Shown: positions 47,501 through 64,000 of the stretch, piece after piece
Position numbering within the stretch: the first letter of the stretch is position 1
Layout: every line of letters begins with the position of its first letter
Assembly: GCA_963664705.1 (NCBI GenBank)
Contig: OY761556.1
Span: forward strand, 2,368,001 to 2,432,000
Direction: 5' to 3'
Source of the DNA: Acidobacteriota bacterium
GTDB lineage: Bacteria; Acidobacteriota; UBA6911
DNA: 64,000 nucleotides
Made by a program: the position numbers and the translations under genes
Notes under the pieces: model-generated
Told to the model about the DNA's origin: nothing
Databases searched by the model: none
Seen by the model: the letters and a program-made list of their open reading frames with translations, nothing else

Positions 47501-48964
47501 ATGATCACAAAAGAAAACCTGTTGCAGATTGTAGGCAATGGTCAGGTGAGCCAGGAGCCCGCTGTCCTGGACGCCTACGCCAGGGATATGAGTTTTGTGA
47601 ACGCCATTAAGCCCCGCTATGTTGTAAAGCCTCAAAACGGTCAAATGGTGCAAAACCTGGTGAAACTGGCCAGCGAGACCGGAACACCCTTAGTCCCGGT
47701 CAGTTCCGGACCTCCGCATTTTCGGGGAGATACCGTCCCGAGTGTTGGAGGCGCAGTCGTCGTAGATCTGAGTGAGATGAAGAAAATCATTTTTGTCGAC
47801 CGCCCGCGCAGAGTCGCAATGGTTGAACCGGGCGTAACATTCGGCGAACTGATACCTGCAGTCGAAAAGGAAAATCTCCGGCTCAACATGCCGCTTCTGC
47901 CAAGAGGTTCGAAGTCTGTTGTGGCCAGCATTCTTGAACGAGAGCCCGTGGTGATGCCCAAATATCAATGGGATATGTCCGATCCATTGGCGTGTGCCGG
48001 TCTGTTCTTCGGCACCGGCGACGAATTCCGCACCGGGCAGGCTGCGGGACCTGGAACCATCGACGAACAATGGGAAGTGGGCGGCCTGCAAAAGGCGCCT
48101 TACGGACCCGGCACCGCATCGCTGCACCGTGTGATTCAGGGTGCACAGGGAACCATGGGAATTGTCACATGGGCTTCCATGCGCTGCGAAATACTCCCCA
48201 ATATTGAAGAAGGGTTCGTGGTTGGTGCCGCAAAGCCGGATGCCTTGCTCGAACTCACACACTGGCTCATACGGCTTCGCATCGTGAATGAATGCTTCAT
48301 ACTGAACAGCAGTGAGCTTGCCGCAATCTTTGCGAAAGATGCCAACGAATTCAAAGCCATTAAAGATACGCTGCCCGCGTGGACGCTCTTTTACGCCATC
48401 GCCGGTTATGAATGTCTGCCTGAAGAAAGAGTCAGCTCTTATATCAGGGACATCACGGATCTAACCCAGAGGTTGAACGTACAGGCACTCAAAGCGGTGG
48501 GAGCCATTTCGGCCAATGAAATTTTAAAAGTCGTAAAAAAGCCATCGGCAGAGCCGTACTGGAAGCTTCGCAATAAAGGTGCCAGCGAGGATATATTCTT
48601 TTTAACCATCAATGACAAGCTTGCGGATCAGATTGCGGTAATGGAGGATCTGGCCGATAAAGCGGGCTATCCCACATATCTCATGGGAACCTATATACAA
48701 CCGGTGGTCCAGGGCACCGGCTGTCATTGCGAATTTACGCTCTTCTACGATCCAACCAACCCCAATGAATACAACCGGGTCAAGGAGCTATCCGTCTCCG
48801 CCACCAAAGCCCTGATGGCCAAGGGGGCCTTTTTCTCGCGGCCTTACGGTGAGAATGCAGGAGTGGTTCTCAACCGCGACGCGGCCAATCTTTCCGTTCT
48901 GAACAAATTCAAAAAGATTTTTGATCCGAACAACATCATGAATCCGGGAAAACTGTGCTTCTAG
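47501..48964 (+). CDS. FAD-binding oxidoreductase (VAO/PCMH/GlcD superfamily)
   Basis: VVDLSEMKKI, VEPGVT, GAQGTMGIVT, FDPNNIMNPGK. Confidence 0.85.
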   Translation: MITKENLLQIVGNGQVSQEPAVLDAYARDMSFVNAIKPRYVVKPQNGQMVQNLVKLASETGTPLVPVSSGPPHFRGDTVPSVGGAVVVDLSEMKKIIFVDRPRRVAMVEPGVTFGELIPAVEKENLRLNMPLLPRGSKSVVASILEREPVVMPKYQWDMSDPLACAGLFFGTGDEFRTGQAAGPGTIDEQWEVGGLQKAPYGPGTASLHRVIQGAQGTMGIVTWASMRCEILPNIEEGFVVGAAKPDALLELTHWLIRLRIVNECFILNSSELAAIFAKDANEFKAIKDTLPAWTLFYAIAGYECLPEERVSSYIRDITDLTQRLNVQALKAVGAISANEILKVVKKPSAEPYWKLRNKGASEDIFFLTINDKLADQIAVMEDLADKAGYPTYLMGTYIQPVVQGTGCHCEFTLFYDPTNPNEYNRVKELSVSATKALMAKGAFFSRPYGENAGVVLNRDAANLSVLNKFKKIFDPNNIMNPGKLCF

Positions 48965-49018
48965 GAGAAGCCGAGCGAAGGAAAATTTACGACCCAAAGG
49001 AGATAGGAGGTTCCCATT

Positions 49019-50284
49019 ATGGGACTGGATCAATATAAAGGCGATATGGATATGTGCTGCCGGTGCTCCACCTGCAAATTCATACCTTTGCAACAGGTGA
49101 CCGGCTTCGAATACGCAAATGTTTGTCCCAGCATCTCAAAATATAACTTTCACAGTTACTCGGCGGGCGGCAGATTGAACATCGGCGCAGCGATGTTGAG
49201 GGATGGATTCACTTACTCAGACAAACTCCTTCACATCGTCTACAACTGCCAGATGTGCGGCGCCTGCGGCGTCTCCTGCAATTACGCAATGGATATGGAA
49301 GTCATACAACCGATCCAGGAATTCAGGATGAAATGCGTGGAGGACGAAAAAACCAATCCTGCACTCGATACCGTGATTGCCGGGCTCCGGAAGCAAGGAT
49401 CCATGGTGCCGCCAACCGGCAAACGTGGAGAATGGGCTGCCGGCCTCAAGATCAAAGATGCGACAAAGGAAAAAGTGGACGTGCTTTATCACGTTGGCTG
49501 CCTTACCAGCTTTGACAAAGACAAGCAAAAGCTGGCCAAGGCTACTGCAAAAATCCTCCAGAAAGCCGGAGTTGACTTCGGTATCGCCGGAGACGCGGAA
49601 CCATGCTGCGGTGGGCGTGCCTACCAGATGGGCTATAAGGAGGATTTTCTAAAACAGGCCCAGAAGAATATGGATCTGATAAAAAAGTCAGGCGCAACGA
49701 CTGTCGTAACATCGTGTGCCGACGGGTATCAGGCTTTTAAGGTCCTCTATGACCAGTACGGACTCAAGGGAGACCTCAAAGTACTCCATATCTCGGAATG
49801 CATCGATAGCCTGATTCAGAGCGGCAAGCTGAAACTCGAAAAGAAAGTGGATCTGTCGGTGACCTACCACGATCCCTGCCGGCTGGGAAGGCTGGGCGAG
49901 CCTTGGATCCATTGGGAGGGGAAAAAGATTCCAGGAGACAGATTCGTCTTTGATCCCCCCAAGACATACCGTAAGGGAACGTATGGCGTATACGATCCCC
50001 CACGTCGTGTTTTGAAAAGCATCCCGGGACTGAAGTTCACCGAGATGACCAGGATCAAGGAATACGCCTGGTGCTGCGGCGCCGGCGGCGGTGTCAACGA
50101 ATCCAATCCCGAATTTGCCAAGTGGACGGCAATGGAAAGAATCGAAGAGGCCGGCTCTACCGGTGCAGAGGCGATTGTTACCGCGTGTCCTTGGTGTGAA
50201 AAGACCTTCAATGAAGCCATTCAGAACAACCGCGGCAGTATGAAGGTCTACGACATTGTCGAACTTGTTGAGCAGGCTCTTTAA
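49019..50284 (+). CDS. Fe-S oxidoreductase with 2x[4Fe-4S] and two CCG domains (GlcF/HdrD-like)
   Basis: CCRCSTC, CQMCGACGVSC, PCCGG, YHDPCRLGR, WCCGAGGG, TACPWC. Confidence 0.9.
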   Translation: MGLDQYKGDMDMCCRCSTCKFIPLQQVTGFEYANVCPSISKYNFHSYSAGGRLNIGAAMLRDGFTYSDKLLHIVYNCQMCGACGVSCNYAMDMEVIQPIQEFRMKCVEDEKTNPALDTVIAGLRKQGSMVPPTGKRGEWAAGLKIKDATKEKVDVLYHVGCLTSFDKDKQKLAKATAKILQKAGVDFGIAGDAEPCCGGRAYQMGYKEDFLKQAQKNMDLIKKSGATTVVTSCADGYQAFKVLYDQYGLKGDLKVLHISECIDSLIQSGKLKLEKKVDLSVTYHDPCRLGRLGEPWIHWEGKKIPGDRFVFDPPKTYRKGTYGVYDPPRRVLKSIPGLKFTEMTRIKEYAWCCGAGGGVNESNPEFAKWTAMERIEEAGSTGAEAIVTACPWCEKTFNEAIQNNRGSMKVYDIVELVEQAL

Positions 50285-50302
50285 TTGGGAGGATAACCAG
50301 TC

Positions 50303-51772
50303 ATGGCATTAGACAAGGACATCTATGCGGCATTCGAAGATATAGTGGGACCGGAAAACATCTGCAATGATCCCGTGATCACGCCTTCGTATCACGCAAC
50401 CGAGTTCGCGGCAGTTGTTCTCCCGAAGAATACAGCCGAGGTACAATCCATCGTCCGGTTGTGCAACAAACTCAAATTGAAATTCCGACCGGTCTGCACG
50501 GGATGGACCGGCACATTCCAGCCGGGAATCGTTTATCTCGATCTGCGGCGTATGAATCGTATCATCGAGATCAACGAAAAGAACATGTACGCCGTTGTGG
50601 AACCCTACGTCATCTCGGCCCAGCTGCAGGCAGAACTGATGAAAAGAGGCCTGCACTTCAATGTGAAGGGCGCGGGAACCAACTGCTCCGCGATGCTGAG
50701 AGGACATGGACACCTTGACCAGAGCACCAGCGGTGACGACCGGAACCACCTTGCCATCGAGTGGGTGACTCCGGAAGGAGACATCGTTCGATCGGGCGCT
50801 CTCGGCTCTTCTGACGAATGGTTCAGCGGCGACGGCCCCGGCCCATCCATACGATCCATTCTCACAAGCGCCGTGCCTCCGGGAGTAACTCCGGGCGTAT
50901 TTACCAAGGCCGCGGTAAAGGTCTATCACTGGCCGGGACCCGCCAAATTCCCCATCCAGGGAGTATCGCCGAATTATTCCCTGAGCGAAATTCCCACCAA
51001 CATGATGGCTCGTTACTACAGCTTCCCTTCTGTCGAGAAGATGTGGCAGGCGGAAATCAAGTTGGGAGAAAATGAAATCGCGTTTGAACTGATGGGATTC
51101 AACATCTCGATGGTTGCAGCCAATATCACAACCAGCAACGAGGAGGAGGAAGCCACCTTCAAACGGATGAACCAGGAGGTACAAGGCCCCGGGTTCTTCA
51201 TCATCCTGGCGGGCAATTCCGCCGCAGACTTCGCCTACAAAAAGCTCGCTCTGGAGCAGATCGTGAGCGAAGCCGGCGGCATATCGCTAAAATCGTGCGA
51301 GGACCCAAGAATAGAGGGAATCCTGATTTGTCAGTGCATTCGCGTCTCGGCTTCCATCCGCGAGACTTTCCGCGCAGGCGGCGCTTTCAGTTCAATCCCG
51401 GTGATGGGCCAGCGCGATCTAACGATCAAATGGGCTATCGGTGCCGGCAAGGCCAAGGAGCCGCTGATCCAGCAGGGCCTCATTGTTGATGATGGTGGCG
51501 CCTTCTTCGGCTGGGGCGTTGAGCAGGGCCATCTCGGAAAAACCGAGATTTTCTGCAAATTCGATCCCCAGAATCTGGAAGCAAAAGCAGCCGTGGAAAA
51601 GTGGAACCAGGAACAGAGTGCGCGCGCATTCAAAGAACGCTACTTTGCTCCGTTGATGAGCCCGACAGAGGAGATAGGGCCCGGTATGTCCAACTATCAC
51701 CTATGGTGGAACAAGATTACCAAAGCTCTCGATCCGAATGGCGTGGTCCCCGCAGCGGGAGCGCTAGTGTAA
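50303..51772 (+). CDS. second FAD-binding oxidoreductase (VAO/PCMH superfamily)
   Basis: VVLPKNTAEVQSIV, DLRRMNRIIEI, VVEPYV, EWVTPEG, KALDPNG. Confidence 0.83.
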   Translation: MALDKDIYAAFEDIVGPENICNDPVITPSYHATEFAAVVLPKNTAEVQSIVRLCNKLKLKFRPVCTGWTGTFQPGIVYLDLRRMNRIIEINEKNMYAVVEPYVISAQLQAELMKRGLHFNVKGAGTNCSAMLRGHGHLDQSTSGDDRNHLAIEWVTPEGDIVRSGALGSSDEWFSGDGPGPSIRSILTSAVPPGVTPGVFTKAAVKVYHWPGPAKFPIQGVSPNYSLSEIPTNMMARYYSFPSVEKMWQAEIKLGENEIAFELMGFNISMVAANITTSNEEEEATFKRMNQEVQGPGFFIILAGNSAADFAYKKLALEQIVSEAGGISLKSCEDPRIEGILICQCIRVSASIRETFRAGGAFSSIPVMGQRDLTIKWAIGAGKAKEPLIQQGLIVDDGGAFFGWGVEQGHLGKTEIFCKFDPQNLEAKAAVEKWNQEQSARAFKERYFAPLMSPTEEIGPGMSNYHLWWNKITKALDPNGVVPAAGALV

Positions 51773-51870: not shown

Positions 51871-53757
51871 TTAGTTGTTCCAATCCTTTACTAATTCTGA
51901 CAAGCCTAATTCCTCTACTGTCTGCTTTGTCGGCATCCCGGTTTTGATATCCCACCCCATTGCGCTAAAATAGCCTTCCTTCAGGGCCTGAAAGTCAATC
52001 TTCGGCGGAGCACCATTCTGAACAGGCAGCGGCTCCTCTTTCATCCTGGCGGGAAGATCAATCTGATCCGGTGTAATCCCTTCCCTGGCTGTGAAAGCCT
52101 GCCGCAGCGTCAGAATCCTGCGTCCGGTTTTGAGCGCCTCCTCCCAACTCAGATCCCATCCTGTTACGCCGGCAAGCAATTCGGCTACGGCCGGAGGCTG
52201 CGTGTTGACCGCATAGAGAGCGCATAGCCCGGACACATCCATCAATAATTGATAGGCGGCTCCGGTCGAATAGATCATTCCCTTCTTATCGAAATCCGCA
52301 AAAGGACTCAGTTTCGGCACCTGCAGCGCCGGATCAGTTCCGAGCGGAGCTCCGTTCTCGAGCATGCCGATGACCTGGCTGTTCATATGGTGGCCGGGAT
52401 TTGCATCAGCAATAAAGGCAGTTCCTCCCGCCGGGCTCATTCGGGGATCATGGAAAGGCAATCCCTTCCCTCGAACTGCCACCGAGAATCGCTCCGATCC
52501 ACGGCCGATCCGTTCGGCGGCCTTTGTGGGACCATCCGCGAGGACAGCTCCGAATCCCTCTCTCCTGGCTATTTTTTCGGTCAGAGCCACGATGGCTTCC
52601 GCATTCCCCCAGGCTAAATCCAGGCCATCCGTATCCTGCATCCCGATCAGCCCGTTTTCATAGCATTCCATTGCGAACGCGATAACCGTACCGGTAGAAA
52701 TGGTATCAATTCCATACCGGTTGCAGATGTCATTGGCCTTGATCACAGCCTCCTGGTTATCATTCACAAGCAGCGTACCCAGAGCGGCCAGCGTCTCATA
52801 TTCGGGCCGGTGCATCTCGCCGGGGATCGCAAAGGGTCCCTCTTTTTGTTCAATGATGGCGCCGCAACGAATAGGGCAGGCCTGGCAGGCATAGCCGCCT
52901 TTTTTGTACTTATCCATGTTGCCGCTGTCGAGCTTGTTGGCTGTCGGCATGGATTCTGTCCCGGTCAGCCGCCAGTTTTTGACCGGAGAATCCCCGATCG
53001 ATACAAGGAAGCTGACTGCGCCGCCAGTGCCGGCCGCCGTTAGCCCTTTTCCAAACTCGCTGGATTTGATAATGGACAAAAAACGATCCGTGGCTTCGCG
53101 CAGTTTGGCTCGGTCCGCGATGGGTATTTTTTTCGTGCCACCTCTGACGGCGACGGCCTTCAATAACTTGGAACCCATGACGGCGCCAACGCCGCCACGA
53201 GCCGCAATCCGTCCTTTCTCATTTACAATACCCGCGAGCAGTGATTGGGCTTCACCCGCAGGACCGATGGAGGCAACCTTCAATCTGTCGTCACCGATCT
53301 CCCTGCAAATCCTCCCTTCCGTTTCATAGGTATCAAGGCCCCACAATCCGGACGCATCACGAAGTTCCGCCTTTCCGTCCCGAATCAGCAGATACACGGG
53401 CCTGGGGGAAGCTCCCTTGAAAAAAATGGCGTCATACCCGGCTGTCTTCAGTTCAGGCCCGAAGGTGCCCCCCGCATTGGATTCGCACCATGTGCCCGTA
53501 AGTGGGGATTTGGTAACGACACCATATCTTCCGCTTCCGGGCACGGTCGTCCCGGTGAGCGTTCCCACAACAAATCCCAACATATTATCTGTGCCGAGTG
53601 GATCGACTCCGGCTTTCATCTGCTCGTATAAAACTCGGATGCCAAATCCGTAGCCGCCGATAAACTGGCGGCACATCTCCTCCGGCAGATCCATTTCCTG
53701 CATTGAATGTTTACTTAGGTCTACAAAAAGAATTCTCCCCGCATATCCGCAGAGCAT
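51871..53757 (-). CDS. aor: tungsten-type aldehyde:ferredoxin oxidoreductase (AOR family; start revised to ATG 53757)
   Basis: GYAGRILFVDLS, KSPLTG, GVGAVMGSKLLKAV, CQACPIRC, PEYET, HDPR; GGAGGT RBS. Confidence 0.93.
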   Translation of the reverse strand: MLCGYAGRILFVDLSKHSMQEMDLPEEMCRQFIGGYGFGIRVLYEQMKAGVDPLGTDNMLGFVVGTLTGTTVPGSGRYGVVTKSPLTGTWCESNAGGTFGPELKTAGYDAIFFKGASPRPVYLLIRDGKAELRDASGLWGLDTYETEGRICREIGDDRLKVASIGPAGEAQSLLAGIVNEKGRIAARGGVGAVMGSKLLKAVAVRGGTKKIPIADRAKLREATDRFLSIIKSSEFGKGLTAAGTGGAVSFLVSIGDSPVKNWRLTGTESMPTANKLDSGNMDKYKKGGYACQACPIRCGAIIEQKEGPFAIPGEMHRPEYETLAALGTLLVNDNQEAVIKANDICNRYGIDTISTGTVIAFAMECYENGLIGMQDTDGLDLAWGNAEAIVALTEKIARREGFGAVLADGPTKAAERIGRGSERFSVAVRGKGLPFHDPRMSPAGGTAFIADANPGHHMNSQVIGMLENGAPLGTDPALQVPKLSPFADFDKKGMIYSTGAAYQLLMDVSGLCALYAVNTQPPAVAELLAGVTGWDLSWEEALKTGRRILTLRQAFTAREGITPDQIDLPARMKEEPLPVQNGAPPKIDFQALKEGYFSAMGWDIKTGMPTKQTVEELGLSELVKDWNN

Positions 53758-53851: not shown

Positions 53852-54598
53852 ATGCGATTGATGATTAGCGTAGTGTCGGCAGTGGAGGCAGCCAGGGCAC
53901 GCAGCGGCGGAGCTTCGCTTCTGGATGTGAAGAATCCAGAGGAGGGGTCCCTGGGTGCCCAGTGCCCCGAGGTAATCCGCGAGATAAGGAATGTTGCGGG
54001 GGCAGGGGCCGATCTCAGTGTTGCAATTGGCGATATGCCCAACCTTCCTGGAACAGCAGCGCTGGCAGCGCTTGGCGCCGCCGCCTGCGGCGCGGACTAC
54101 ATTAAGGTCGGACTCCATGGCGTGCACAACTATATCGATGCGATCCGCCTTCTGCGCGGAATAAAGGAATCGGTCGTCGGATATAAAACAAAGGTCATTG
54201 CCGCCGCCTATGCGGACTATCGCAATATAGGATCCCTTGATCCGGGCTGCCTTCCGCTCGTTGCTGAGTCTGTGGGGGTCGATGGATACTTGATTGATAC
54301 GGCGGTCAAGGATGGAAGGACGCTGTTGGACTATTATTCAGCGGAGGATCTGGCAATCCTTGCCAACGAGGCGCATGCCCGGGGCCTTCTTTTTGGAGCG
54401 GCGGGAGCGCTTCGGAAAGAGCATCTGCCTCTGTTGCAGGCTGCGGGTGTCGATGTTGCCGGACTTCGCTCAGCAGTATGCAATAACGGCATCCGTACCG
54501 GCACGTTGGATTCCGGTCGCGTCCGCGAACTGATTCAGATGTATGGCGGCTTCTTTGCCGCCAGCTCCACGAATTTGCACAAAGCCGATCTAAGGTGA
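53852..54598 (+). CDS. mfnB: (5-formylfuran-3-yl)methyl phosphate synthase MfnB-like (DUF556, Orf22)
   Basis: LLDVKNPEEGSLGA, SVAIGD, DYIKVG, YADY, DTAVKDG, GLRSAVC. Confidence 0.88.
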   Translation: MRLMISVVSAVEAARARSGGASLLDVKNPEEGSLGAQCPEVIREIRNVAGAGADLSVAIGDMPNLPGTAALAALGAAACGADYIKVGLHGVHNYIDAIRLLRGIKESVVGYKTKVIAAAYADYRNIGSLDPGCLPLVAESVGVDGYLIDTAVKDGRTLLDYYSAEDLAILANEAHARGLLFGAAGALRKEHLPLLQAAGVDVAGLRSAVCNNGIRTGTLDSGRVRELIQMYGGFFAASSTNLHKADLR

Positions 54599-55246
54599 AC
54601 TCGACGCTCGGATGTGCGTTCCCATCGTATGTCCTGTTCTCAGCAATTCCGTGAGACGGCCGGGTTGCATACCATTCACGATCCAGGCTTCAACACTGCT
54701 TTCGCCCAATGCCCGGGACAGGTATTCATCGACTCCTCCGCTATGCTCTTTCAACTGCGCGCACGTCATCTCCGCGATTATCCCGTTGGGATTCAATAGT
54801 CCGTCGACATCCTTGAGAAGGATCAGTCGGGCACAGCCGATGCGTGCGGCGATCCATGCCGCAATGGAATCAGAGGTTACATGCCATGAATGCGGCAGAG
54901 GATCTTCGCGCATCATGATTGTCGCGGGAAGAAGTATCGAGGTTTCGCCGGACATGGCTTTGGTGCAGGCAATGTCAAGATCATGGGTAAGACGGCAGTC
55001 CCTCATCAGATGATGCAGAACATAGCCGTATTGATCCATGGCCAGCAACGCCATGTTGTGAGCAGCCGTCTGCTCCAGATGATATCGGCGATCCGCTTTG
55101 CGCACCTGGTCGGCAAAATCTCCTCCACCGGGTATTACCAGCAGTGAGCGCTCTTTCCCCAATCGGTTTATCTCTTCGCAAAGGGTATTCAGTCCGTTCC
55201 CACGGCTAAGACTGCCCCCGACTTTGAGCACCGCGTCGAGATTCAT
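54590..55246 (-). CDS. amino-acid-kinase family protein, MfnE-like (Orf21; start revised to ATG 55246)
   Basis: VLKVGGSL, PGGGDFADQVR, AHNMALLAMDQYG, PHSWHVTSDSIA, KDVDG. Confidence 0.82.
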   Translation of the reverse strand: MNLDAVLKVGGSLSRGNGLNTLCEEINRLGKERSLLVIPGGGDFADQVRKADRRYHLEQTAAHNMALLAMDQYGYVLHHLMRDCRLTHDLDIACTKAMSGETSILLPATIMMREDPLPHSWHVTSDSIAAWIAARIGCARLILLKDVDGLLNPNGIIAEMTCAQLKEHSGGVDEYLSRALGESSVEAWIVNGMQPGRLTELLRTGHTMGTHIRASSSP

Positions 55247-56286
55247 GCCAATTCCCTGCTCAGATGACGCGCCAGCAACTGCGCCACAGCAAGGCTGGGC
55301 GCAACCGCCGACTCCTTTTTTCCAAGATTGCCGGGGATTGTACCGATGTCCAATCCTGCCTTTTCGGCCGCCGCTTTGGCTAGAAAAGAACCGGCTCCCA
55401 AAACCACGACTGAATGCCTGCGCAATTGCGGCAGCCGGGCAACTACCTGCTCGATTCCTGTTTGAATCTGCCGCACCTGGCATGCGGCCAGATACCGGGC
55501 TATCCCATCAATCTGAGCGGCCTCAAGCGCCTCCATATCTGCACATACGAGACGCGCAATGCGTCTGCGCGCAGAATCGATCGAAACCGATTCGCTATCA
55601 GGTGTCGGGCAATGATACTCGTCGACTTGCAGATTTCCGAGAATCAGGTGGATATCGCCGCTAATCGCAAAATATTCCGAAGCCACCGGACAAAATCGGG
55701 CTGAAACCGGTACGGCCGGTGCAATCGCCGCCAGATTTGTTCGCAGTGCCCCGGTGTACACCAACTCTCCCGCAAGCAGTCGATCCAAATCCGTGCGTCC
55801 CAGGGCAGCCACACGCCCATCAATGATCGGCATTATGTCGGTGGTTGTGCTGCCGGTGTCGATCACCAGGCCGTCCGACATTTGCCGGGCCACCCATTGT
55901 GCCGTGGCCATCCAGTTCGAAGCAGCAAAATCAAGCGGGCGCAGGCCCGCATCCTCCAGCGAAACAAACTCTCCGGCGAGACTAAAAACAAAGGTCTTCA
56001 CTTCAGGAAATGCTGTCTTGAAGCAGCTTAGAACGTACAGGACACCTTCGCGCTTGGTCAGGAATGCATCGGACAGTTCAGCCGTCATGGTGATGGCGGC
56101 AGTGTGCGGATCTGCGGCGCCGCGAACCGCACCCCAAACCTCCAGCAATACCTTGGGCAAGTCCTGCTTATGGCGCCATATCTCAAATGCTTGCGATGCC
56201 ACAAACGCTTCATCGCCCAAAGCTTTCCCGCAATTCCATCGCGCCGCTTTTATATTGGCCGCCCCGATATCCCAACCAACGATCAT
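55243..56286 (-). CDS. hydantoinase A-like H4MPT-linked C1 protein, MfnF-like (Orf9)
   Basis: GWDIGAANIK, TMTAELSDAF, ASNWMA, DTGSTTTDI, ELVYTGALRT, RIARLVCAD. Confidence 0.88.
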   Translation of the reverse strand: MIVGWDIGAANIKAARWNCGKALGDEAFVASQAFEIWRHKQDLPKVLLEVWGAVRGAADPHTAAITMTAELSDAFLTKREGVLYVLSCFKTAFPEVKTFVFSLAGEFVSLEDAGLRPLDFAASNWMATAQWVARQMSDGLVIDTGSTTTDIMPIIDGRVAALGRTDLDRLLAGELVYTGALRTNLAAIAPAVPVSARFCPVASEYFAISGDIHLILGNLQVDEYHCPTPDSESVSIDSARRRIARLVCADMEALEAAQIDGIARYLAACQVRQIQTGIEQVVARLPQLRRHSVVVLGAGSFLAKAAAEKAGLDIGTIPGNLGKKESAVAPSLAVAQLLARHLSRELA

Positions 56287-57377
56287 CCCTGCACCGCCAA
56301 ATTCCCCATAAGCCGATCGGAAAGCCCCCAGGTCCGAAAGTCATTTTTTAGAATAGTGACCTGTCCGGAAATCGGAATCTGCTCAGGCAGCATTCCGTGT
56401 AGACAAGCCTTAAAAATAGCCTCCGCAAGGTTCACCCGGCTTACCTGCCGCAAGCCGATATAGGAAGTCGTCAGCCTCGGATTGATTTCGATCAACTGTG
56501 CCACACCTTCAGTCAAAACAAGATCCACCCCCACATAGCCTTGCAATCCGGGAATGGATCGTACCGCGGAACAGGCCAATTCCGATACATCCCGGGCCAA
56601 TGGGCTTTGAAACGGAACCCGGCTTCCCATGTATTTTAGTTGTGAACCAGTTTCCATCAGCTGTTCATTGAGGCTTATCGCCATGCAATGATCGCGGGAA
56701 GCCAGAACGGATACACTGACGGAACGTCCGGCGACATAGGGCTGCAGCAGGAATTGATTGTGCGATGTGGACTGCCGAACCTGTCGCAGCGCCTTGTTGA
56801 TTTCGCTCCTGTCCTGAACACAACATACGCCATCGCTCCCCGCACCATCCAGCGGCTTGAGCACCAATGGAAAAGCAGACAGGTTGAAAATATCGGTGCC
56901 ACAATCAAAGGGGAGACATCGAGTTTGTGGAGAAGGAAGCTTCCTGTTCAAAAAAACATCGTGGCACAATGCTTTATTCCCGGTCAGCGCCGCAGCAGAA
57001 CTGCAGGAACCCAGAACCGGTATATCCTTATCTTCAGCCTGCTTTGTAAGTGCAGCCAGGATATTATCCGTCTCCGGTGCAATAATAAGCACGGCGTCAC
57101 ATAGTTCCAGTAATGTACCAAACCCATTGCAGGGGCAGTCCTCCGAAATGGAAATGACCTGATCGGCAGGCAGGGTGGTACGGTTGAGTCCGGGAATTCG
57201 ATCTTCAACGTGGGAATCCAGAGCAGCGATTGTCCGAACTTCTCCCCAGTGTTTGAAATCGGTCAGGAGCGCCCAAATCATGCCGAGCGCTTCGATTGCC
57301 AGATCGGCAGGAATATCCTTGCCGAGGCAACCGCCGCCGGTAAAGAATTCATAGACCAGAACTGTTGAGGAAGACAT
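56283..57377 (-). CDS. ATP-grasp ligase, MfnD/tyramine-glutamate ligase-like (Orf1)
   Basis: VYEFFTGGG, IIAPET, VLKPLDGAGS, GYVGVDLV, IEINPRLTTSYIGL; start could extend to 57386 or 57395. Confidence 0.85.
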   Translation of the reverse strand: MSSSTVLVYEFFTGGGCLGKDIPADLAIEALGMIWALLTDFKHWGEVRTIAALDSHVEDRIPGLNRTTLPADQVISISEDCPCNGFGTLLELCDAVLIIAPETDNILAALTKQAEDKDIPVLGSCSSAAALTGNKALCHDVFLNRKLPSPQTRCLPFDCGTDIFNLSAFPLVLKPLDGAGSDGVCCVQDRSEINKALRQVRQSTSHNQFLLQPYVAGRSVSVSVLASRDHCMAISLNEQLMETGSQLKYMGSRVPFQSPLARDVSELACSAVRSIPGLQGYVGVDLVLTEGVAQLIEINPRLTTSYIGLRQVSRVNLAEAIFKACLHGMLPEQIPISGQVTILKNDFRTWGLSDRLMGNLAVQG

Positions 57378-58155
57378 GCGAATCATACCCGTCATCGATC
57401 TATTAAACGGTTTTGCGGTTCACGCCATCAAGGGGGACCGAAAAAACTACCGGCCGCTTCACAGCATACTATGCAGCCAACCGGATCCTATCACAATCGC
57501 TCGATCTTTTCGGACCCAGCTCGGACTCAAGGAACTTTACCTGGCTGACCTGGATTGCATTCAGTACCGCGACAGCGCAAAGCATCGCCGGTTGATATCC
57601 AGCCTGGCGACAAACGAGTCCATGGATATTATCCTGGATGCAGGCGTTTCCGAGATTGAGGCCGCCATTGATTGGATAAACGCAGGAATCCACAAGATTG
57701 TCATCGGATCTGAGACGCTGCGGGCACTCAGCGTCATTGCGCAAATTCCGCAAACCCTCGACAAAAATCGCATTGTTTTCAGCCTTGATCTCCAGTCCGG
57801 CGCCATCCTGTCTCAATGCAGTGAATTCGCGGCCCTGTCCCCGATCGAAGCACTGGACCTGCTTCAATCGGCTGGATGGCAAGAGGTCATTCTGTTGGAT
57901 CTCACCCGTGTCGGCAGCGGGATGGGCATCGACCGGAATCTGGTTGCCGAGACACGACGAAGATTTCCGGAAATGAACCTGCTGGTTGGAGGCGGGATTG
58001 CCGGCCCTGAACAGATGTCGGAGCTTTGGGAATCAGGCGTTGCCGGGGTATTGCTGGCGACAGCGCTGCATAACGGAACCATTACAACCCAAAACATTTC
58101 CGCAATGCAGGAGCCGCAAAAAAAGAGGTGCCCCGCTTTCACCGCGGGGCACTGA
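57376..58155 (+). CDS. HisA/HisF-related TIM-barrel protein of C1-transfer clusters (Orf17)
   Basis: IIPVIDL, YLADLD, LDAGV, FSLDL, LDLTRVGSGMG, GGGI, ATALH. Confidence 0.87.
   Translation: MRIIPVIDLLNGFAVHAIKGDRKNYRPLHSILCSQPDPITIARSFRTQLGLKELYLADLDCIQYRDSAKHRRLISSLATNESMDIILDAGVSEIEAAIDWINAGIHKIVIGSETLRALSVIAQIPQTLDKNRIVFSLDLQSGAILSQCSEFAALSPIEALDLLQSAGWQEVILLDLTRVGSGMGIDRNLVAETRRRFPEMNLLVGGGIAGPEQMSELWESGVAGVLLATALHNGTITTQNISAMQEPQKKRCPAFTAGH
58118..58152 (-). terminator. rho-independent terminator of fae, inside the 3' end of orf17
   Basis: GTGCCCCGC-N7-GCGGGGCAC stem with a T7 run on the minus strand. Confidence 0.75.
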
Positions 58156-58185
58156 TATTGAGTCTCCCGATTATGGACTTCGGCT

Positions 58186-58698
58186 TTATTTATATGCCGC
58201 GAAGGGATGAGCCAGCTCACCTTTCTTCGCCTGAATTTCCGCAGCCTTCGGCTCCCCGGCAACAGCGCGCTGGATGGCAAGCTTCGTGGCTTCGTAATTG
58301 AACTTCTGGATCTTGGCATCGTCCTTCGCTTCCCAATGGATGAACACGCCAACCAGAACAAATATATCCTCGGCCTCTGCCGCCGGAATCGTTCCCTCTT
58401 CCACGCAATCGGCCACGGCCATTGCCACAGCCCGCTGTGCAGGCCCAAACATCTGCACCGCCTGCGTCGCATTCTTTATCGTCACTTTATTGAACATGAC
58501 GGTGGAAGGTTTGCATACGAGGTTCGGAGCTACTACGGCCAGCAATGCGGTAAACCCGTCTTTGTTGTTTGTGAGCGTATTGCAAAAAGCTGTTTCGGCA
58601 GCACTCCCGCGAGGTCCCATCAACAGATCGATATGAGCAACTTCATTTCCATCGCCGATCAGAGCTTCGCCTACCATCACACGATTTATTTTTGCCAT
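58186..58698 (-). CDS. fae: formaldehyde-activating enzyme
   Basis: [14 protein letters not shown](22)[43 protein letters not shown]; AGGAGG RBS. Confidence 0.96.
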
Positions 58699-58741
58699 TT
58701 CGCCTCCTAATAATTCGAGAACCGTTCAGTTTGGTGCTGGA

Positions 58742-58770
58742 TCTATATATCGCATAGTACATTTTGTCAA
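58742..58770 (-). promoter_or_regulatory. candidate sigma70 promoter of fae
   Basis: Perfect TTGACA, 17 nt spacer, then AT-rich TATAGA (imperfect -10). Confidence 0.45.
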
Positions 58771-58807
58771 CACGATTCGAAATACACCACTTTTAATAAC
58801 TTTGTTT

Positions 58808-59635
58808 TCATAAGATCTGGCATTGAGGACAATAGTAGATTGCGCCACCCAGGTACGCTTCCTTTTTTATTGGTCGTCCGCAGTCGGCACAGGGCTTGTT
58901 CACCGTTTTTTTGCTGAGGATTGTATGATACCCGCCCGACATACCATACAAATCCAATTCGGTATCTCGCCCTCCCTGGATCTCCATGGCGGCCAGGGTT
59001 GACTTAACCGATGCATATAAAGTGGCACGATCTTTCTCCGTAAGCGTCCGGGTCTTCCTCTTGGGATGCAATTTCGCATGGAACAGAATATCCTGCAACG
59101 TCCCATTCCCCAGCCCGGGAATTCTCTGCTCCGTCGCAAGCAAACCCTTGAGACTCAGGTTCCGGACATCGTCCGCAGCAGTGATTTTCTGAAAATAGGA
59201 TTCGCTGAACTTTGAAGCCAGGGGAGAGGGTTTTTCCTTGGCCACCTTATAGTACTTGTTTTCCAATTCCCCTCTTAGACAGCAACCCATGCCTCCGTAC
59301 ATCTGCACACAGGCGGTCAGCGCCGTATGATCGTCAAACTCGATAAGGAGTTGATGCTTCAGAGGGCGCGGTTCACCGGAGGGACAGAACCTGATCCCCA
59401 CTCCCTCACCCAGAAGGATGTCCGCCTCCCCTGCCCCTATCTCCACTAACCCGCCATACGCGATTGCTTTTCCAATTGTCTTTCCCATCAGCAAACGGCT
59501 ATAGCCATCCCGGTCGCCGTAGTACCACATCAACTTATGCGGGGTGTGACCGACCGTTACCCCCACAATCCGCTTCCCCTTGATCGTGGCGTTCAGTTGT
59601 TTGGAAATATTTGATGATTCCGGGAGTTCAATCAT
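58808..59635 (-). CDS. Fpg/Nei-family DNA glycosylase-like protein (divergent)
   Basis: MIELPE start, H2TH motif IPGLGNG...ILFHAKLHP, C-terminal zinc finger CADC...CPQC. Confidence 0.85.
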   Translation of the reverse strand: MIELPESSNISKQLNATIKGKRIVGVTVGHTPHKLMWYYGDRDGYSRLLMGKTIGKAIAYGGLVEIGAGEADILLGEGVGIRFCPSGEPRPLKHQLLIEFDDHTALTACVQMYGGMGCCLRGELENKYYKVAKEKPSPLASKFSESYFQKITAADDVRNLSLKGLLATEQRIPGLGNGTLQDILFHAKLHPKRKTRTLTEKDRATLYASVKSTLAAMEIQGGRDTELDLYGMSGGYHTILSKKTVNKPCADCGRPIKKEAYLGGAIYYCPQCQIL

Positions 59636-59644
59636 GGCGACACC

Positions 59645-60541
59645 TCAAGTAACAATTCGCGTCAAACCCGAACCGGCAATGCCCGGCCCAAATCTCCAAT
59701 ACCGATCCAGCAGCACAAGAAAGACGACGGCAGTGGTCAAATCCGCCGTGGTCCCAGGATTCAGAGTATGGCCGGGATCCCGCAACGACCGGTCCAGATC
59801 TTTTATTGCCGACTCGCCCTCCGGCGAAAAAACGCCGCCCCGATCCAGTGCCGCCGCCGCCCTGCAGGAAACGCCTTGCGCCGTCTCCCCATCTTTCTTC
59901 CTAAAAATCAGCGTATCCGGAACACGACTCAGGATGGTAAGGTAGCACTGCACGACTGCACGGGAGAACTCCGCGCCGCGTGCCAATGCCGCCTGCAGCG
60001 CGGGATATCCAATTTCAAAGGATATCTCAAAATCGCTGGAATACTCTCTAGCAATGGAATCCCTTTCCCGCGCCAGTTGCATGGCCTGCAGCAGCGTTAT
60101 GGATGGCTGCGCCGCAATATCGGCAGTCTCCACCCGGCCCATGCCGCCCGGCTTTGCCATGCGAATGGCTTTGTAGGCAAAAACCGCATCCTCCACGCTT
60201 AATTCCTGAAGTACCGTATGGAGCTTTTCGCGAACTTCACCCAGGGAACGCGCGCATTGGCATGATTTCACTAATGGCGCAAGCAAAAGGATGATTCCAA
60301 GGTTGGTATTTGAACTTACCATGCGGTGAGTGGCGTCAACTGCCTGCAGGATGATTTCACCCACTCGGAGGGCTTCTGCTTTATCCAGGGCGGATCCGAT
60401 AGCGATAGCGCTCAGCAGAAAATCACTCATGGTCGCATCACAAAAATCCTGTTCTCGCGACACATTGCCCGGCTTTGAGGAACAAACATCCCATATGCAG
60501 GCCATCTGGGCAAGTTGAGCAATTTCTCCGGGCGTTTTCAT
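59645..60541 (-). CDS. CitG-like triphosphoribosyl-dephospho-CoA synthase family (Orf7; start probably ATG 60541)
   Basis: KPGNV, NTNLGIILLLAPL, PDTLIFRK, NPGTTADL. Confidence 0.88.
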   Translation of the reverse strand: MKTPGEIAQLAQMACIWDVCSSKPGNVSREQDFCDATMSDFLLSAIAIGSALDKAEALRVGEIILQAVDATHRMVSSNTNLGIILLLAPLVKSCQCARSLGEVREKLHTVLQELSVEDAVFAYKAIRMAKPGGMGRVETADIAAQPSITLLQAMQLARERDSIAREYSSDFEISFEIGYPALQAALARGAEFSRAVVQCYLTILSRVPDTLIFRKKDGETAQGVSCRAAAALDRGGVFSPEGESAIKDLDRSLRDPGHTLNPGTTADLTTAVVFLVLLDRYWRFGPGIAGSGLTRIVT

Positions 60542-60545
60542 TGCA

Positions 60546-61412
60546 TCAGGATTCCAGCACATGATCGACAATGGCTTCGGCAATCTGCAATTCAGTGGTC
60601 TTTTGCAAACCGCGCCAGCCGGGAATGCTGTTTATTTCAATGACGTAAGTCGTTCCGTTCTCCGCAGGCATCAGATCTACGCCAGCGTAGTCCAATCCGA
60701 CAAGACGAGCCGCATCTACAGCCAGAGCCTTCATCTGTTCATCCAAATCAATAGGCTCAGCCGACGCACCCTGTGAAAAATTGGTTTTCCATCCTTTGCC
60801 GCGGCGCCGCATCGCCGCAATCACCCTCTCGCCCACAACAAAGGCACGTATATCCTCCTGCCGATGCGGCAGATATTCCTGAATATAGAAAATATAGCGA
60901 TTCAGTTCCCACGAACGCAGCACACGATAAGCGGTATCTTCATCGCAAATCCGGACCATTCCTTTGCCCTCGGATCCAAACAAGGGTTTGACAATGACAT
61001 CCCCTAATTCGCGACAAGCCTGCATTGCCGTTTCAAAATCTTCCGTTACCAGAGTCCGCGGCGTCTGGATTCCCGCGTCCGCAAGGAGGAAAGACGTGTA
61101 ATACTTATCCACGGTTTTCTCAATCGCGGATGCCGGGTTCACGACACGAACGCCCAACCGCTGCAATCGGTGGAAGGCATCCATTCGGAAGACGATCTGT
61201 TCCAGAGACCCGGTGGGAATGGTCCGAACAAACAACGCACGGCAATCGTCCAGCCGTTGGCCGCGAACATGAAGTGCCGGAGCGCCGTCGATCCAGCCGG
61301 CCATTCGAGTGATCGGGAAAAAAACAGGTTCGCAATTATGGTGGCGCACGGCCGCTTCCAGCGCCTGAACATGATAGCCCCTCTGGGAGGAGAGAATTCC
61401 TATCTTGTCCAT
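60546..61412 (-). CDS. RimK-family glutamate ligase of C1-transfer clusters (Orf5)
   Basis: GSLEQIVFRMD, VKPLFGSEGKG, WKTNF, GVDL, IEINSIPGW. Confidence 0.9.
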   Translation of the reverse strand: MDKIGILSSQRGYHVQALEAAVRHHNCEPVFFPITRMAGWIDGAPALHVRGQRLDDCRALFVRTIPTGSLEQIVFRMDAFHRLQRLGVRVVNPASAIEKTVDKYYTSFLLADAGIQTPRTLVTEDFETAMQACRELGDVIVKPLFGSEGKGMVRICDEDTAYRVLRSWELNRYIFYIQEYLPHRQEDIRAFVVGERVIAAMRRRGKGWKTNFSQGASAEPIDLDEQMKALAVDAARLVGLDYAGVDLMPAENGTTYVIEINSIPGWRGLQKTTELQIAEAIVDHVLES

Positions 61413-61418
61413 CGTCGG

Positions 61419-62381
61419 CTAGCTTTCCAAAAAGGAGGCACGAATCAAATCGGCATTCAGGGATCCTGATCGGAAGAGTCGTCCCGAATTCAGATTATTG
61501 ATTGCCACCTCAGCAGGGCTGAAAAGCAGTTTGTCGATCTGGTAAAAATCGCCTTTATACTGCATGAAGATATCGTAGAACGGCTTCCCGTAATCGCGAG
61601 AGCTGGCCGAAGGTATCTTATCAATCAACTCGGTAAGAAGCGCATCGTCCGTTCGCACGGAATAGGTGACCTGCGCCCCATAGAGGATTGCGTCATTAGT
61701 ACGCCCGATGGCTTTCAGATCATTGGCAGCCACGGGAGCCAGCGGACACAAACCGATGGCATGTATCACGGTGCGCACATCAAATCCCAGTTCAACCAGC
61801 TTGTGCAAGCCGGTTTCTGCCGAACGGGCGGCAACCTGGACAGACCCTGCAATCGAAGCGGTCGGCGCTACCAACAGGATCAGATGCTCAGGATGAACTT
61901 GGCATTTTTCAGCTACATAGGCTGCAACCTCTGCCGTGGGCAACTCCCTTGTCTCAAGCATCAGGACTGCCGTATCACTCTGGTCGCGGTATTCAAGCTT
62001 TCCAAAAAGCTCCTCATCGGCGCAGCGCGCTCGTGCGGGCCCGGAGCCAATGGCAAAATAGCGATCGAGTTTGATGGCCCATCCCGCGTACTGGGACGCC
62101 ATACAGGCAATCGCGGGATAACTTGCGGTAATCGCTACCGCGGGCACATGGAATGCCTCCGCTCCCGTGTAAAAGCCCTGCTGCGTAAAACTGACCTGGC
62201 CCAATCCGCCCAGGCAGGCGCAGGAGAAAAGACGCCCGGCTTCCAGGCTGCCTGGAACATTAACGCCGGCATCGACCACCGTGGCTCTGTTGGACAACCG
62301 GAAAGTATTCAGGCCAAGGGCCTCGCCATCATCTATCATCTGTTGAACGATCACAGCCGCGCGTCTGTTAACACTGATCAT
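61419..62381 (-). CDS. mch: methenyl-H4MPT cyclohydrolase (start revised to ATG 62381)
   Basis: MISVNRRA, CLGGLG, ACMASQYAGW, GSGPARA, QVAARSAETGLHKL, GRTNDAILYG, FYQIDKLLFSPA. Confidence 0.95.
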   Translation of the reverse strand: MISVNRRAAVIVQQMIDDGEALGLNTFRLSNRATVVDAGVNVPGSLEAGRLFSCACLGGLGQVSFTQQGFYTGAEAFHVPAVAITASYPAIACMASQYAGWAIKLDRYFAIGSGPARARCADEELFGKLEYRDQSDTAVLMLETRELPTAEVAAYVAEKCQVHPEHLILLVAPTASIAGSVQVAARSAETGLHKLVELGFDVRTVIHAIGLCPLAPVAANDLKAIGRTNDAILYGAQVTYSVRTDDALLTELIDKIPSASSRDYGKPFYDIFMQYKGDFYQIDKLLFSPAEVAINNLNSGRLFRSGSLNADLIRASFLES

Positions 62382-63177
62382 AGACGAGTATCTCTCCCTT
62401 CCCGATCCGATTAAAATCACCGCTATATCGATGGAAACACCCCGTTGAAGCATATTTTGGAACCTGGATCCCGTGCTCGCTCAGGTGTTGGAAGATCAAA
62501 CCTAGAAAACTTGGCTGATATCGACAAGCATATCGATAGGTTGGCAGCAATTCCGGTTTTTCAAAGGTCACAATCGTGCCGCGCAACAGTCCGGCGCCGG
62601 CGCGCACTCCCAGCTTCCCGAACACTACAATGGAGCCGGCGATCATAAAAGCTCCTGCGAAATCACCAACGTCTTTCTGGACGGCAATCAGCCCGCGCCG
62701 CATGCAGGCGCCTACCTCATTTCCCGCGCTTCCTTCTACCAGGATTACCCCACGGTTCATTCCGTGGCGGCTGCCTCGATAGGCTCCGCCCAGGCAATGA
62801 CCGGCATCCCCGCGAATATGGATCCTGCCACCAGCCATCTCGGCGCCAGCCCAATCCCCGGCATTGCCGAAAACATGAATCTCACCACCGCGCATACCGG
62901 CCCCCAGATGCATGCCGATATTTCCCTGAACGGTAAGGCGTCCGGAGGTCATTCCCGACCCGACATTCTTTACCCGGCTCAGATCCCCGCGGAGAACAAC
63001 CTCTTCCGTACCCTGTTCGTCAATCTGAAAGAAATCGCCCAAAGAAACACGCTGATTCCCATGCATGGCGGGAAGCTGGGCGATTTCGAATGCGGATTTG
63101 CCACGCAAGACATCCGGCGTAATGGATCCTGCCTCCAGAGGAGCCTCGGGTTGCACGTGCATTGTCAGCATAGTCAT
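62368..63177 (-). CDS. fwdC: formylmethanofuran dehydrogenase / Fhc subunit C (GXGXG beta-helix; start revised to ATG 63177)
   Basis: Repeated GxxMxxGxIxVxG units, GAYRGSRHGMNRG, GKGEIL; ATGA overlap with the ftr stop. Confidence 0.9.
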   Translation of the reverse strand: MTMLTMHVQPEAPLEAGSITPDVLRGKSAFEIAQLPAMHGNQRVSLGDFFQIDEQGTEEVVLRGDLSRVKNVGSGMTSGRLTVQGNIGMHLGAGMRGGEIHVFGNAGDWAGAEMAGGRIHIRGDAGHCLGGAYRGSRHGMNRGVILVEGSAGNEVGACMRRGLIAVQKDVGDFAGAFMIAGSIVVFGKLGVRAGAGLLRGTIVTFEKPELLPTYRYACRYQPSFLGLIFQHLSEHGIQVPKYASTGCFHRYSGDFNRIGKGEILVYDQC

Positions 63178-64000
63178 CTGGAAGCGTCTCCATTCAGAAT
63201 TTTGTGTAAATGGAAATGAAACTTGCCCAGATTGCCTCCGTAGTTGCCCGCGGAAATGCGCAGGACACCCGGGATGCACGCAGCCAACACCCCAACGCGG
63301 GTCGCCTCTTCAATCGATTCGACATCCAGCCCGTCAATAACTATTTCAAGCACTGAGTTCACGCCCTCCGGCAATTCTGTCTTCACCAGCCCTCGCAAAC
63401 TGGGGCAGAATGCATCATTCGTGGATGCTCTCAGGAACTTATACCGTGATCCGACTTTGCTTCCACTGCGGACAATACCGCCGGGAAAAGGCAAAATCAC
63501 GTTGCGAATACGCCTCATGGCATCAACCGCCAATTCAGCAGCCTGTAGTGTGGTTTGCGGATCCTTCCCCAGGATAAGAAAATTCCCGCCACCGATTCCC
63601 CGCTGAAGGCCAAATTTTTCCTCAATGAGAAACTCCCCTTCCATTACCGGTATTCTCCAGTAGCAGCGGCCATCGATAACTTTGCTTGCCTGGAACGTAT
63701 CGCCAAAAAAACGCAACTGGCTTCCCACCGCCACGCGCTCCTCGGAGGACAAACCGTTGTAGCAGGCGGTGGTGGCACAGGTCAGTATCGTCTGTCCGAT
63801 GCGATCGATTAGCTGCTTTGAAAGAGTATCCTTGCCGTAGGCAAACATGAGGATGCTGGCACCCGGCCGCCCATCGGGCGTATTATCCATTTCGCATTCA
63901 AGCCCCGCCTCGCACCCACACCCGATAACGGAGGTGGCAAATCCTGTCATCTGGCGTACCGCTTCGATTACCCATTTGCGATTTACGGCTGTAATGATTA
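63174..64000 (-). CDS. ftr: formylmethanofuran:H4MPT formyltransferase (Ftr/FhcD), 5' end beyond the window
   Basis: TGFATSVIGCGCEAG, TPDGRPG, RIGQTILTC, GGGNF, RSGSKVGSRY, SAGNYGGNLG; frame open to base 64000. Confidence 0.95.
   Translation of the reverse strand, partial: IITAVNRKWVIEAVRQMTGFATSVIGCGCEAGLECEMDNTPDGRPGASILMFAYGKDTLSKQLIDRIGQTILTCATTACYNGLSSEERVAVGSQLRFFGDTFQASKVIDGRCYWRIPVMEGEFLIEEKFGLQRGIGGGNFLILGKDPQTTLQAAELAVDAMRRIRNVILPFPGGIVRSGSKVGSRYKFLRASTNDAFCPSLRGLVKTELPEGVNSVLEIVIDGLDVESIEEATRVGVLAACIPGVLRISAGNYGGNLGKFHFHLHKILNGDASR

Follow-up and report, generated by a model that had tools for sequence, protein, structure and literature searches.

A likely Fwd/Fhc hybrid enzyme encoded in the tetrahydromethanopterin/methylofuran gene cluster of a UBA6911-like acidobacterium

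We analyzed a stretch of 64,000 nucleotides (the window) from an Acidobacteriota genome that consists of one 6.89 Mb contig (assembly GCA_963664705.1, contig OY761556.1; window = G000:C1:2368001-2432000), at whose end lies a gene cluster for one-carbon (C1) transfer on tetrahydromethanopterin (H4MPT) and a furan carrier. A sequence-only reading of the window had listed the genes of this cluster, and NCBIfam and Pfam profiles, whose cut-offs were used for the gene calls, recover all of them between 53852 and 64000. The cluster totals about 21 kb and extends about 11 kb beyond the window edge, where fwdA, fwdB, fwdD, mtd, mptG and orf20 are present (in the extended numbering used here, window 64001 is G000:C1:2432001). 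Its catalytic core on the minus strand comprises mch for the methenyl-H4MPT cyclohydrolase (61419..62381, likely start 62381; TIGR03120, 409 bits); fwdC, with an FhcC-type C-terminal helix-loop-helix insertion and a basic patch (62368..63177; TIGR03122, alignments and a model); the formyltransferase gene ftr (63174..64000 and on to extended 64073; TIGR03119 and NF002554; 299 aa, whole in the genome); fwdA (extended 64111-65733; TIGR03121, 779 bits); fwdB (extended 65727-67016; likeness to archaeal FwdB); and fwdD (extended 67026-67409; PF01568 above cut-off, NF042908 at 75 bits below it). The formaldehyde-activating enzyme gene fae (58186..58698; TIGR03126, 255 bits) lies on the same strand, and mtd, of the MtdA/MtdC type, on the plus strand (extended 68794-69651). 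The core cluster genes are each single-copy in the genome by blastp. From an ATP-grasp gene (extended 67396-68589, minus strand; likely orfY/myfA) through an Fpg-like gene the gaps measure only -38 to +37 bases, followed by 109 bases to fae, which fits a single operon.

Genes for cofactor synthesis accompany this core. They include mfnB (orf22), the furan ring synthase gene (53852..54598, plus strand; PF04476 (4HFCP_synth), 222 bits), and, on the minus strand, genes for an mfnE-like kinase of the amino-acid-kinase fold (54590..55246, likely start 55246; PF00696, with NF040622 at 127 bits below cut-off), an mfnF-like protein (orf9; 55243..56286; TIGR03123 above cut-off) and an mfnD-like (orf1) ATP-grasp ligase (56283..57395; PF02655 (ATP-grasp_3) and PF18301 (preATP-grasp_3), with NF040722 at 112 bits below cut-off). 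An orf17-like gene for a HisA/HisF-fold protein follows on the plus strand (57376..58155; TIGR00734, 128 bits; PF00977 (His_biosynth)), and further minus-strand genes are citG-like (orf7; 59645..60583; PF01874, 249 bits) and rimK/orf5-like, the latter for a glutamate ligase that is likely MyfB (60546..61412; TIGR00768 above cut-off, MptN model 292 bits; PMC8141765). PMC8141765 assigns functions to orfY, orf5 and orf17, finds orf17 required for methylofuran synthesis in Methylorubrum extorquens, and MfnA dispensable for the tyrosine form of the furan cofactor. Beyond the window the minus strand carries mptG (extended 69674-70696), a DUF447 gene (extended 70696-71244) and the DHPS-like orf20 (extended 73849-75198). 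An AfpA/DmrX-like flavoprotein encoded at C1:870812 is 58% identical to the product of the orf20-adjacent gene of relatives. FolE, FolK and FolP gave hits in a broad motif scan of the genome, and a single blastp query for MptA/FolE2 found no match; that scan missed the real Fhs and serine hydroxymethyltransferase (SHMT) genes, and its negatives (cytochrome oxidase, Dsr, Mtr) were not used.

The cluster shows no sign of chimerism. The GC-skew curve is regular, the tetranucleotide distance of the cluster lies at the 48th percentile among 313 genome windows, and the same-genus locus L100 shares the flanking order of major facilitator superfamily (MFS) transporter, FAD oxidase, CCG protein, FAD oxidase, aldehyde:ferredoxin oxidoreductase (AOR) and mfnB, and on these grounds a chimera or a recent xenologous island was rejected. 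The window includes rpsB, rpsI and rplM, and every S2 homologue listed under an organism name belongs to Acidobacteriota (3/3, these being the three named among the 120 matches listed). In its gene tree FwdB falls (SH-aLRT 99) beside a record titled UBA6911 and two more whose accession prefixes are among those given for family UBA6911 (group 18 Acidobacteriota) in the 2021 preprint, which is single-gene evidence. The host is an acidobacterium, UBA6911-like by gene trees. Of the anaerobic, Acidobacteriota-like host proposed from sequence, the phylum stands, and strict anaerobiosis is not established, the preprint (10.1101/2021.04.09.439258) reporting aerobic respiratory chains in nearly all genus UBA6911 genomes.

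Subunit B distinguishes a formyl-furan dehydrogenase (Fwd) from the hydrolytic complex of methylotrophs (Fhc), FhcB being defined by the loss of Cys118, His119, Arg288, the Fe-S domain and FwdD (PMC6926001). None of these losses is seen here: FwdB keeps the equivalents of all three residues, including the cysteine ligand of the molybdenum or tungsten (Mo/W), its N-terminal [4Fe-4S] motif is intact (C8, C11, C15, C34), and FwdD, the fourth domain, is encoded in the cluster, so that the subunit belongs to the Fwd type between the two that the sequence-only reading had left open. FwdB scores 405-413 bits to archaeal FwdB vs 58 to FhcB; likewise, FwdA scores 540-551 bits to 5T5I, 8RJA, 9SFI and 9SW6 vs 352 to FhcA, and its binuclear amidohydrolase His/Lys/Asp motifs align with 5T5I_A. 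The ligand cysteine recurs in 45/45 bacterial loci, the histidine in 44 and the arginine in 43 (one gap and one frameshifted row), and the Fe-S cysteines in 43/43 rows covering that stretch, in a set fetched with peptide patterns that contain cysteine motifs and hence biased upward. Among fwdB loci from a hidden Markov model (HMM) search, which is unbiased for cysteines, 15/15 of those fetched have Cys or TGA at the ligand codon. The fwdDBAC genes show nonsynonymous divergence (dN) of 0.09-0.26 against two relatives, with synonymous sites near saturation, and are by this comparison under strong purifying selection. The genome also has moaA-, mobA- and moeA-like motif hits and 23 AOR-family genes.

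An in-frame TGA stands at the ligand codon in eight loci of seven other Acidobacteriota genomes (L210-L214, L216, L217 and L226; genomes G005, G006, G012, G024, G076, G446 and G093), and all eight have a similar stem-loop 3' of it, with paired changes. These genes likely encode a selenocysteine FwdB. Four of the genomes lie within the genus and carry the TGA copy in a fwdD-B-C operon apart from the main one, and this operon seems to replace the fwdD and fwdB that the main operon of G005 and G006 has lost. In other acidobacterial families, the B subunits of L218 (G381) and L221 (G268) are degenerate and lack a linked fwdD, and those of the similar clusters L217 and L220 are intact, a pattern that suggests independent decay from Fwd to Fhc.

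As to the C subunit, two features set FhcC apart from FwdC, a formyltransferase-binding helix-loop-helix (216-246) and a basic patch to which methylofuran is anchored (PMC6926001). The alignment of our FwdC to FhcC runs through residue 265; four of five archaeal FwdC alignments stop at 202-222, and the fifth, lowest-scoring one reaches 255. The inter-motif stretch measures 36 residues here and 27-36 in bacteria (40 measurable of 51 rows), as against 15-16 in 22/22 archaeal rows, so the short C-terminal hairpin of archaea with a stand-alone Ftr is not what this protein has. R160, R161, R192 and R199 are found in 90-100% of the 51 bacterial rows vs 0-5% of the archaeal ones; these rows include overlapping loci and kin of anaerobic methanotrophic archaea (ANME-1) and are not independent. 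With the orf5/orf17-like genes, these bacteria-specific arginines may bear on the binding of polyglutamylated methylofuran to such a patch. An AlphaFold2 model of FwdC (predicted local distance difference test, pLDDT, 94.5) has helices at 224-234 and 241-244, and superimposes on FhcC 6S6Y_C over 265/265 residues (Z 35.1, rmsd 1.7) and on FwdC 5T5I_C over 254/269 (Z 35.8, rmsd 1.4), the Z scores being tied. A model of FwdC with an Ftr dimer, a complex whose like (6S6Y) is already solved, scored 0.82 vs 0.32 for the best control, where the mark is passed by 116/157 solved and 2/215 mismatched pairs; contacts agree to at least 95% between runs, the partner pLDDT is at least 91, and the interface is FwdC 215-231. 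Taken with the FwdB residues and FwdD, this insertion and predicted docking make the enzyme likely a Fwd/Fhc hybrid, with archaeal dehydrogenase residues and a methylotroph-type Ftr-docking tail; on the published path from Fwd to Fhc it appears to have taken steps 2 and 3 but not step 1.

Turning to direction, no other gene of the cluster is as conserved as fae (dN 0.05). Mtd scores 271 bits to MtdA, is about half identical to the NADP-dependent enzyme and has retained the Arg that follows the Rossmann strand; it is presumably also akin to the MtdC kind. It belongs to a clade separate from the Mtd of most genus members, and its gene lies on the opposite strand. In the subtype that most of those members have, the Rossmann motif is altered and 16-20 residues are inserted at the NADP phosphate loop, possibly a cofactor switch (L020, L023, L027, L031, L033, L034, L042, L101, L105, L108, L110, L112, L114 and L116). 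Mer has no match in 25/25 Acidobacteriota genomes and none above cut-off in 49/49, and neither a luciferase-like Mer nor acetyl-CoA synthase (ACS; PF03598) was found in this genome; PF03598 of CO dehydrogenase/ACS is present in 7/25 genus genomes. The branch would hence end at the methylene level, with Fae the likely entry, and a reductive Wood-Ljungdahl role, one form of the reductive option raised from sequence, becomes unlikely here. The potentials of about -390 mV for methenyl/methylene-H4MPT, about -500 mV for CO2/formyl-furan and -320 mV for NADP favor an oxidation that runs to CO2 and yields NADPH and reduced ferredoxin. We consider an oxidative formaldehyde sink with these three products the most likely role.

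As to where the C1 units arise, the genome encodes 24 URO-D-family matches, of which one is HemE-like and about 23 are corrinoid-methyltransferase-like, four corrinoid proteins, two MeTr above cut-off, AcsV-like activators, MetFV beside HdrA/MvhD, several MetF paralogues, Fhs, a FolD motif and GcvT. A URO-D gene sits between rimK and citG in L111 and L117. Corrinoid methyltransferases are on this gene content an unproven candidate C1 source. Three clusters of them occur (G000:C1:1149038-1162972, 3064251-3072369 and 4331639-4334591), along with about 13 scattered URO-D-like paralogues of 420-510 aa that are putatively methyltransferase-like. A co-occurrence of the URO-D expansion with mch was looked for, and no association was found. 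The reverse ribulose monophosphate route (Hps), pyrroloquinoline quinone (PQQ) alcohol dehydrogenase and MttB were rejected, none being above cut-off in 5/5 genomes. The sole SHMT found (C1:3340417-3341880; L118:12417-13880) is archaeal-type, with 174 bits to 4BHD/4UQV, which we take to be the M. jannaschii enzyme, vs at most 87 to others. Canonical GlyA, present in 15/16 other genomes of the class, gives way to this type in the genus, where G007 alone has a canonical hit, a partial one. Its role as an H4MPT-specific serine entry is unsupported; mch-negative members have it too, and homologues occur as GcvT fusions or at a distance from H4MPT genes.

Among other genomes of the genus, mch is found in 18/24, fwdB by HMM search in 18/24 and fae in 17/24; mch is found in 0/16 other genomes of the class and in 17/401 phylum-wide, in five families. 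The best titled relatives of FwdB are acidobacterial (75-81%, one at 68%), including the record titled UBA6911, followed by mostly Chloroflexota (65-75%) and archaea (about 47%). In the FwdB tree, a quick tree, and the Mch tree the genus forms one clade (support 99) inside Chloroflexota, and monophyly of Chloroflexota is rejected in an approximately unbiased (AU) test on 29 rows selected out of 90 (p = 0.004). Since the tested group was named post hoc from the tree and sampled by similarity to the query, we regard transfer of the module from Chloroflexota as no more than likely. Beside mtd in 13 loci, mostly of Chloroflexota and in genomes mostly without fae, stands DUF2193, often with DUF1464 (L031, L033-L035, L037-L039, L044, L050, L051, L057, L061 and L090); DUF2193 is a candidate for the missing step there, and single blastp queries, a weaker search, found neither domain in our genome.

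The remaining features bear less directly on the pathway. An AOR-family gene (51871..53757, minus strand; Pfam AFOR_N/C) diverges from mfnB; its best PDB match is 1AOR, formaldehyde:ferredoxin oxidoreductase being lower, and 77-79% identical orthologues stand at the mfnB side in L098, L100 and L102, a putative and unproven link to C1 metabolism. The triplet of FAD-oxidase, CCG Fe-S protein and FAD-oxidase with an MFS gene (window 47501-51772) is conserved beside AOR in L100. A UshA-like protein (window 44615-45718) fused to a c554-type heme domain scores 274 bits against the (seleno)protein model NF041198 (cut-off 275), with a match starting at residue 2, so that upstream UGA read-through is possible. 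Between citG and fae is inserted a gene for an Fpg/Nei-family DNA glycosylase-like protein (58808..59635, minus strand; profile matches), which the sequence-only reading had missed and which was seen at no equivalent place in the gene maps of relatives. Beyond the window, all on the minus strand, are genes for a 632-aa protein (extended 71318-73216; no Pfam match), a yfiT-like protein (extended 73289-73825), these two seeming unrelated to the cluster, and a 346-aa protein (extended 75332-76372; no Pfam or NCBIfam match), the last (G000:C1:2443332-2444372; L001:13332-14372) conserved near H4MPT clusters in seven loci.

We lean, with slightly better than even confidence, towards a module that oxidizes formaldehyde to CO2 through a predicted five-subunit FwdDBA-Ftr-FwdC complex, fed chiefly by internal corrinoid demethylation and glycine cleavage. 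Fae would condense formaldehyde with H4MPT, and the MtdA/MtdC-type Mtd would oxidize methylene-H4MPT, probably yielding NADPH. Through Mch and Ftr the formyl group would then reach a polyglutamylated furan carrier that is probably tethered to FwdC; FwdA would hydrolyze formyl-furan, and the formate, tunneled onward, would be oxidized to CO2 by FwdB/FwdD at a Mo/W-bis-pyranopterin guanine dinucleotide center, with electrons leaving via the FwdB [4Fe-4S] cluster to an unlinked ferredoxin. The weakest step is the formaldehyde source, which we suppose to be intracellular overflow of methylene-tetrahydrofolate, itself derived from corrinoid-dependent demethylation (MT1, corrinoid protein, MeTr, MetFV) and glycine cleavage.

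Several observations, besides the upward bias in the conservation counts given above, weigh against this proposal. No fwdF/fwdG and no ferredoxin gene lies in the cluster (0/15 small two-cluster ferredoxins of the genome map there), an unlinked partner being a possible electron acceptor. The score of the FwdC-Ftr model may come from its resemblance to 6S6Y, the Fhc complex already solved. The module is dispensable, mch lacking in 6/24 genus genomes, and G020 (L206) and G342 (L208/L222) hold orphan, fast-evolving mch genes without the remaining cluster nearby; fae occurs in only 6/30 other, mostly Chloroflexota, genomes that carry Fwd of the same type. The in-operon URO-D gene of L111 and L117 is on the opposite strand and may represent one event, genus members that lack mch have the same MetF and 10-14 URO-D matches, and 13 other mch-positive Acidobacteriota have only 1-3. 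Further, a folate route (FolD, Fhs) is complete in the cell and yields ATP.

The same enzymes might instead run reductively, from CO2 and reduced ferredoxin via formyl-furan to methylene-H4MPT, as an electron sink or an ATP-free C1 supply. Fwd, a reversible enzyme, serves CO2 fixation in methanogens (PMC6926001), several hydrogenase motifs were hit in this genome, and ACS occurs in 4/19 mch-positive genus genomes. A second, divergent fwdDBAC operon in G018 (L215, G018:C5; 49%) stands head-to-head with NuoE/NuoF-like and [FeFe]-hydrogenase genes, which are possibly its electron partner. Yet such a path would stop at methylene where Mer and ACS are not found, Fhs already supplies C1 units in 25/25 genus genomes, an NADP-type Mtd favors oxidation on the potentials given above, and the primacy of fae in conservation speaks for formaldehyde entry; we judge this reading unlikely. 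Release of formate in the manner of Fhc, with B and D vestigial or unmetallated, is very unlikely: the order B-A-ftr-C, the FhcC tail, the want of fwdF/fwdG in the cluster and the degenerate acidobacterial B subunits without fwdD would suit it, but the full set of catalytic residues, FwdD, strong purifying selection and selenocysteine codons at the ligand site all point to live redox chemistry.

The other two alternatives concern the C1 source. Methyl groups could be placed straight onto H4MPT by one of the two MeTr paralogues, with MetFV-HdrA-MvhD replacing Mer, in which case the module would be the main oxidative methyl branch; MetF has been proposed to stand in for Mer in ANME-1 (PMC9012536), several MetF paralogues are at hand, and the sole SHMT found is archaeal-type. 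We hold this to be improbable, as genus members without mch also have this MetF, conserved at 83-93%, as the SHMT type, with its GcvT-fused or distant homologues, occurs in them as well, and as the strong conservation of fae points to free formaldehyde; an ANME-1-like MetF was itself rejected, on 36-39% identity to ANME-1 MetF and no co-occurrence with mch. The suggestion of Yadav et al. that formaldehyde is external and cross-fed in the community, to be scavenged or detoxified with little internal source, fits the want of the C1 routes rejected above, the failure of a single blastp query to find an Fe-dependent alcohol dehydrogenase in the genome, the patchy retention across the genus and the AOR neighbor conserved in four genomes. 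Some 20 genes and two costly cofactors are, however, a heavy investment for occasional detoxification, and internal C1 producers abound, which leaves it quite improbable beside internally fed oxidation to CO2.

The cluster, in sum, is real, conserved and under selection, and the truncated C1 machinery of UBA6911, left unexplained in 2021, can now be framed as testable claims. With a formyl-furan dehydrogenase, a bacterium could save the low-potential electrons of formaldehyde; run backwards, the enzyme could fix CO2 without ATP, and as a compact, predicted self-channeling enzyme it would be of interest for CO2 biocatalysis. The hybrid is relevant, too, to the sequence in which the three proposed steps from Fwd to Fhc took place. 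A bolder and doubtful conjecture is that bacteria keep a widespread five-subunit Fwd-Ftr with tethered methylofuran, in Cys and Sec (selenocysteine) versions, as a living intermediate, which in this genus would be the terminal step of an unrecognized anaerobic oxidation of corrinoid-bound methyl groups to CO2 without ACS or Mer. If so, docking and tethering preceded the loss of redox activity.

In a full-text search that did not extend to subscription papers, we found neither a biochemical assay of a redox-type Fwd from bacteria nor a report of a hybrid C subunit or of a selenocysteine FwdB in bacteria. Adam et al. (2019) reportedly surveyed the pathway in bacteria, and their survey may already cover such lineages. 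PMC5020050 records the pathway for Chloroflexi and fwdD for Firmicutes, Synergistetes and NC10, and calls the role of H4MPT/methanofuran in non-methanogens and non-methylotrophs enigmatic; PMC10100899 counts 149 bacterial FwdB-family hits, PMC7331816 treats Sec in FwdB, and PMC13188914, in the part available, mentions FwdB for methanogenic archaea only. The preprint on UBA6911 (10.1101/2021.04.09.439258), as far as its accessible text goes, found no formaldehyde source and deemed the value of the pathway unclear. The sequence-only reading was right on the pathway and overstated its novelty: the UBA6911 pathway and the bacterial fwdDBA-ftr-fwdC operon type are already published, and the additions made here are the likely hybrid build of the enzyme, Sec variants of FwdB and a candidate source of methyl groups.

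Compared with known systems, the enzyme shares with archaeal Fwd (M. wolfeii 5T5I; Ca. Ethanoperedens 8RJA) the FwdB Cys/His/Arg residues and [4Fe-4S] motif, FwdD and the FwdA amidohydrolase. Unlike the archaeal FwdABCD(FG), the acidobacterial cluster has no linked fwdF/fwdG, ftr lies inside the operon, FwdC bears the bacterial insertion and basic patch, and Mer was not found. With the Fhc of M. extorquens (6S6Y; PMC6926001) it has in common the order B-A-ftr-C, the helix-loop-helix of C with predicted C-Ftr docking, the orf5/orf17-like and likely orfY furan-glutamylation genes, and fae-mtd-mch; in contrast to that system, no methanol dehydrogenase was found, B is intact and D is present, so that CO2, and not formate, is the likely product. 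The Hakuba actinobacterial single-amplified genome S47 (PMC7325909) shows the same fwdDBA-ftr-fwdC order, Cys118, [4Fe-4S] motif and lack of fwdFG; in the available text it is reported with the Wood-Ljungdahl pathway and without methanopterin synthesis genes, whereas the acidobacterium has cofactor genes, fae, mtd and mch, and ACS was not found in it. The H4MPT-linked formaldehyde oxidation described for genus UBA6911 (Yadav 2021; 10.1101/2021.04.09.439258) very likely represents the same lineage and pathway; that preprint has the pathway end in formate, with no C1 source found upstream of it. In the genome analyzed here corrinoid methyltransferases abound, and the terminal enzyme looks, from its sequence, redox-competent.

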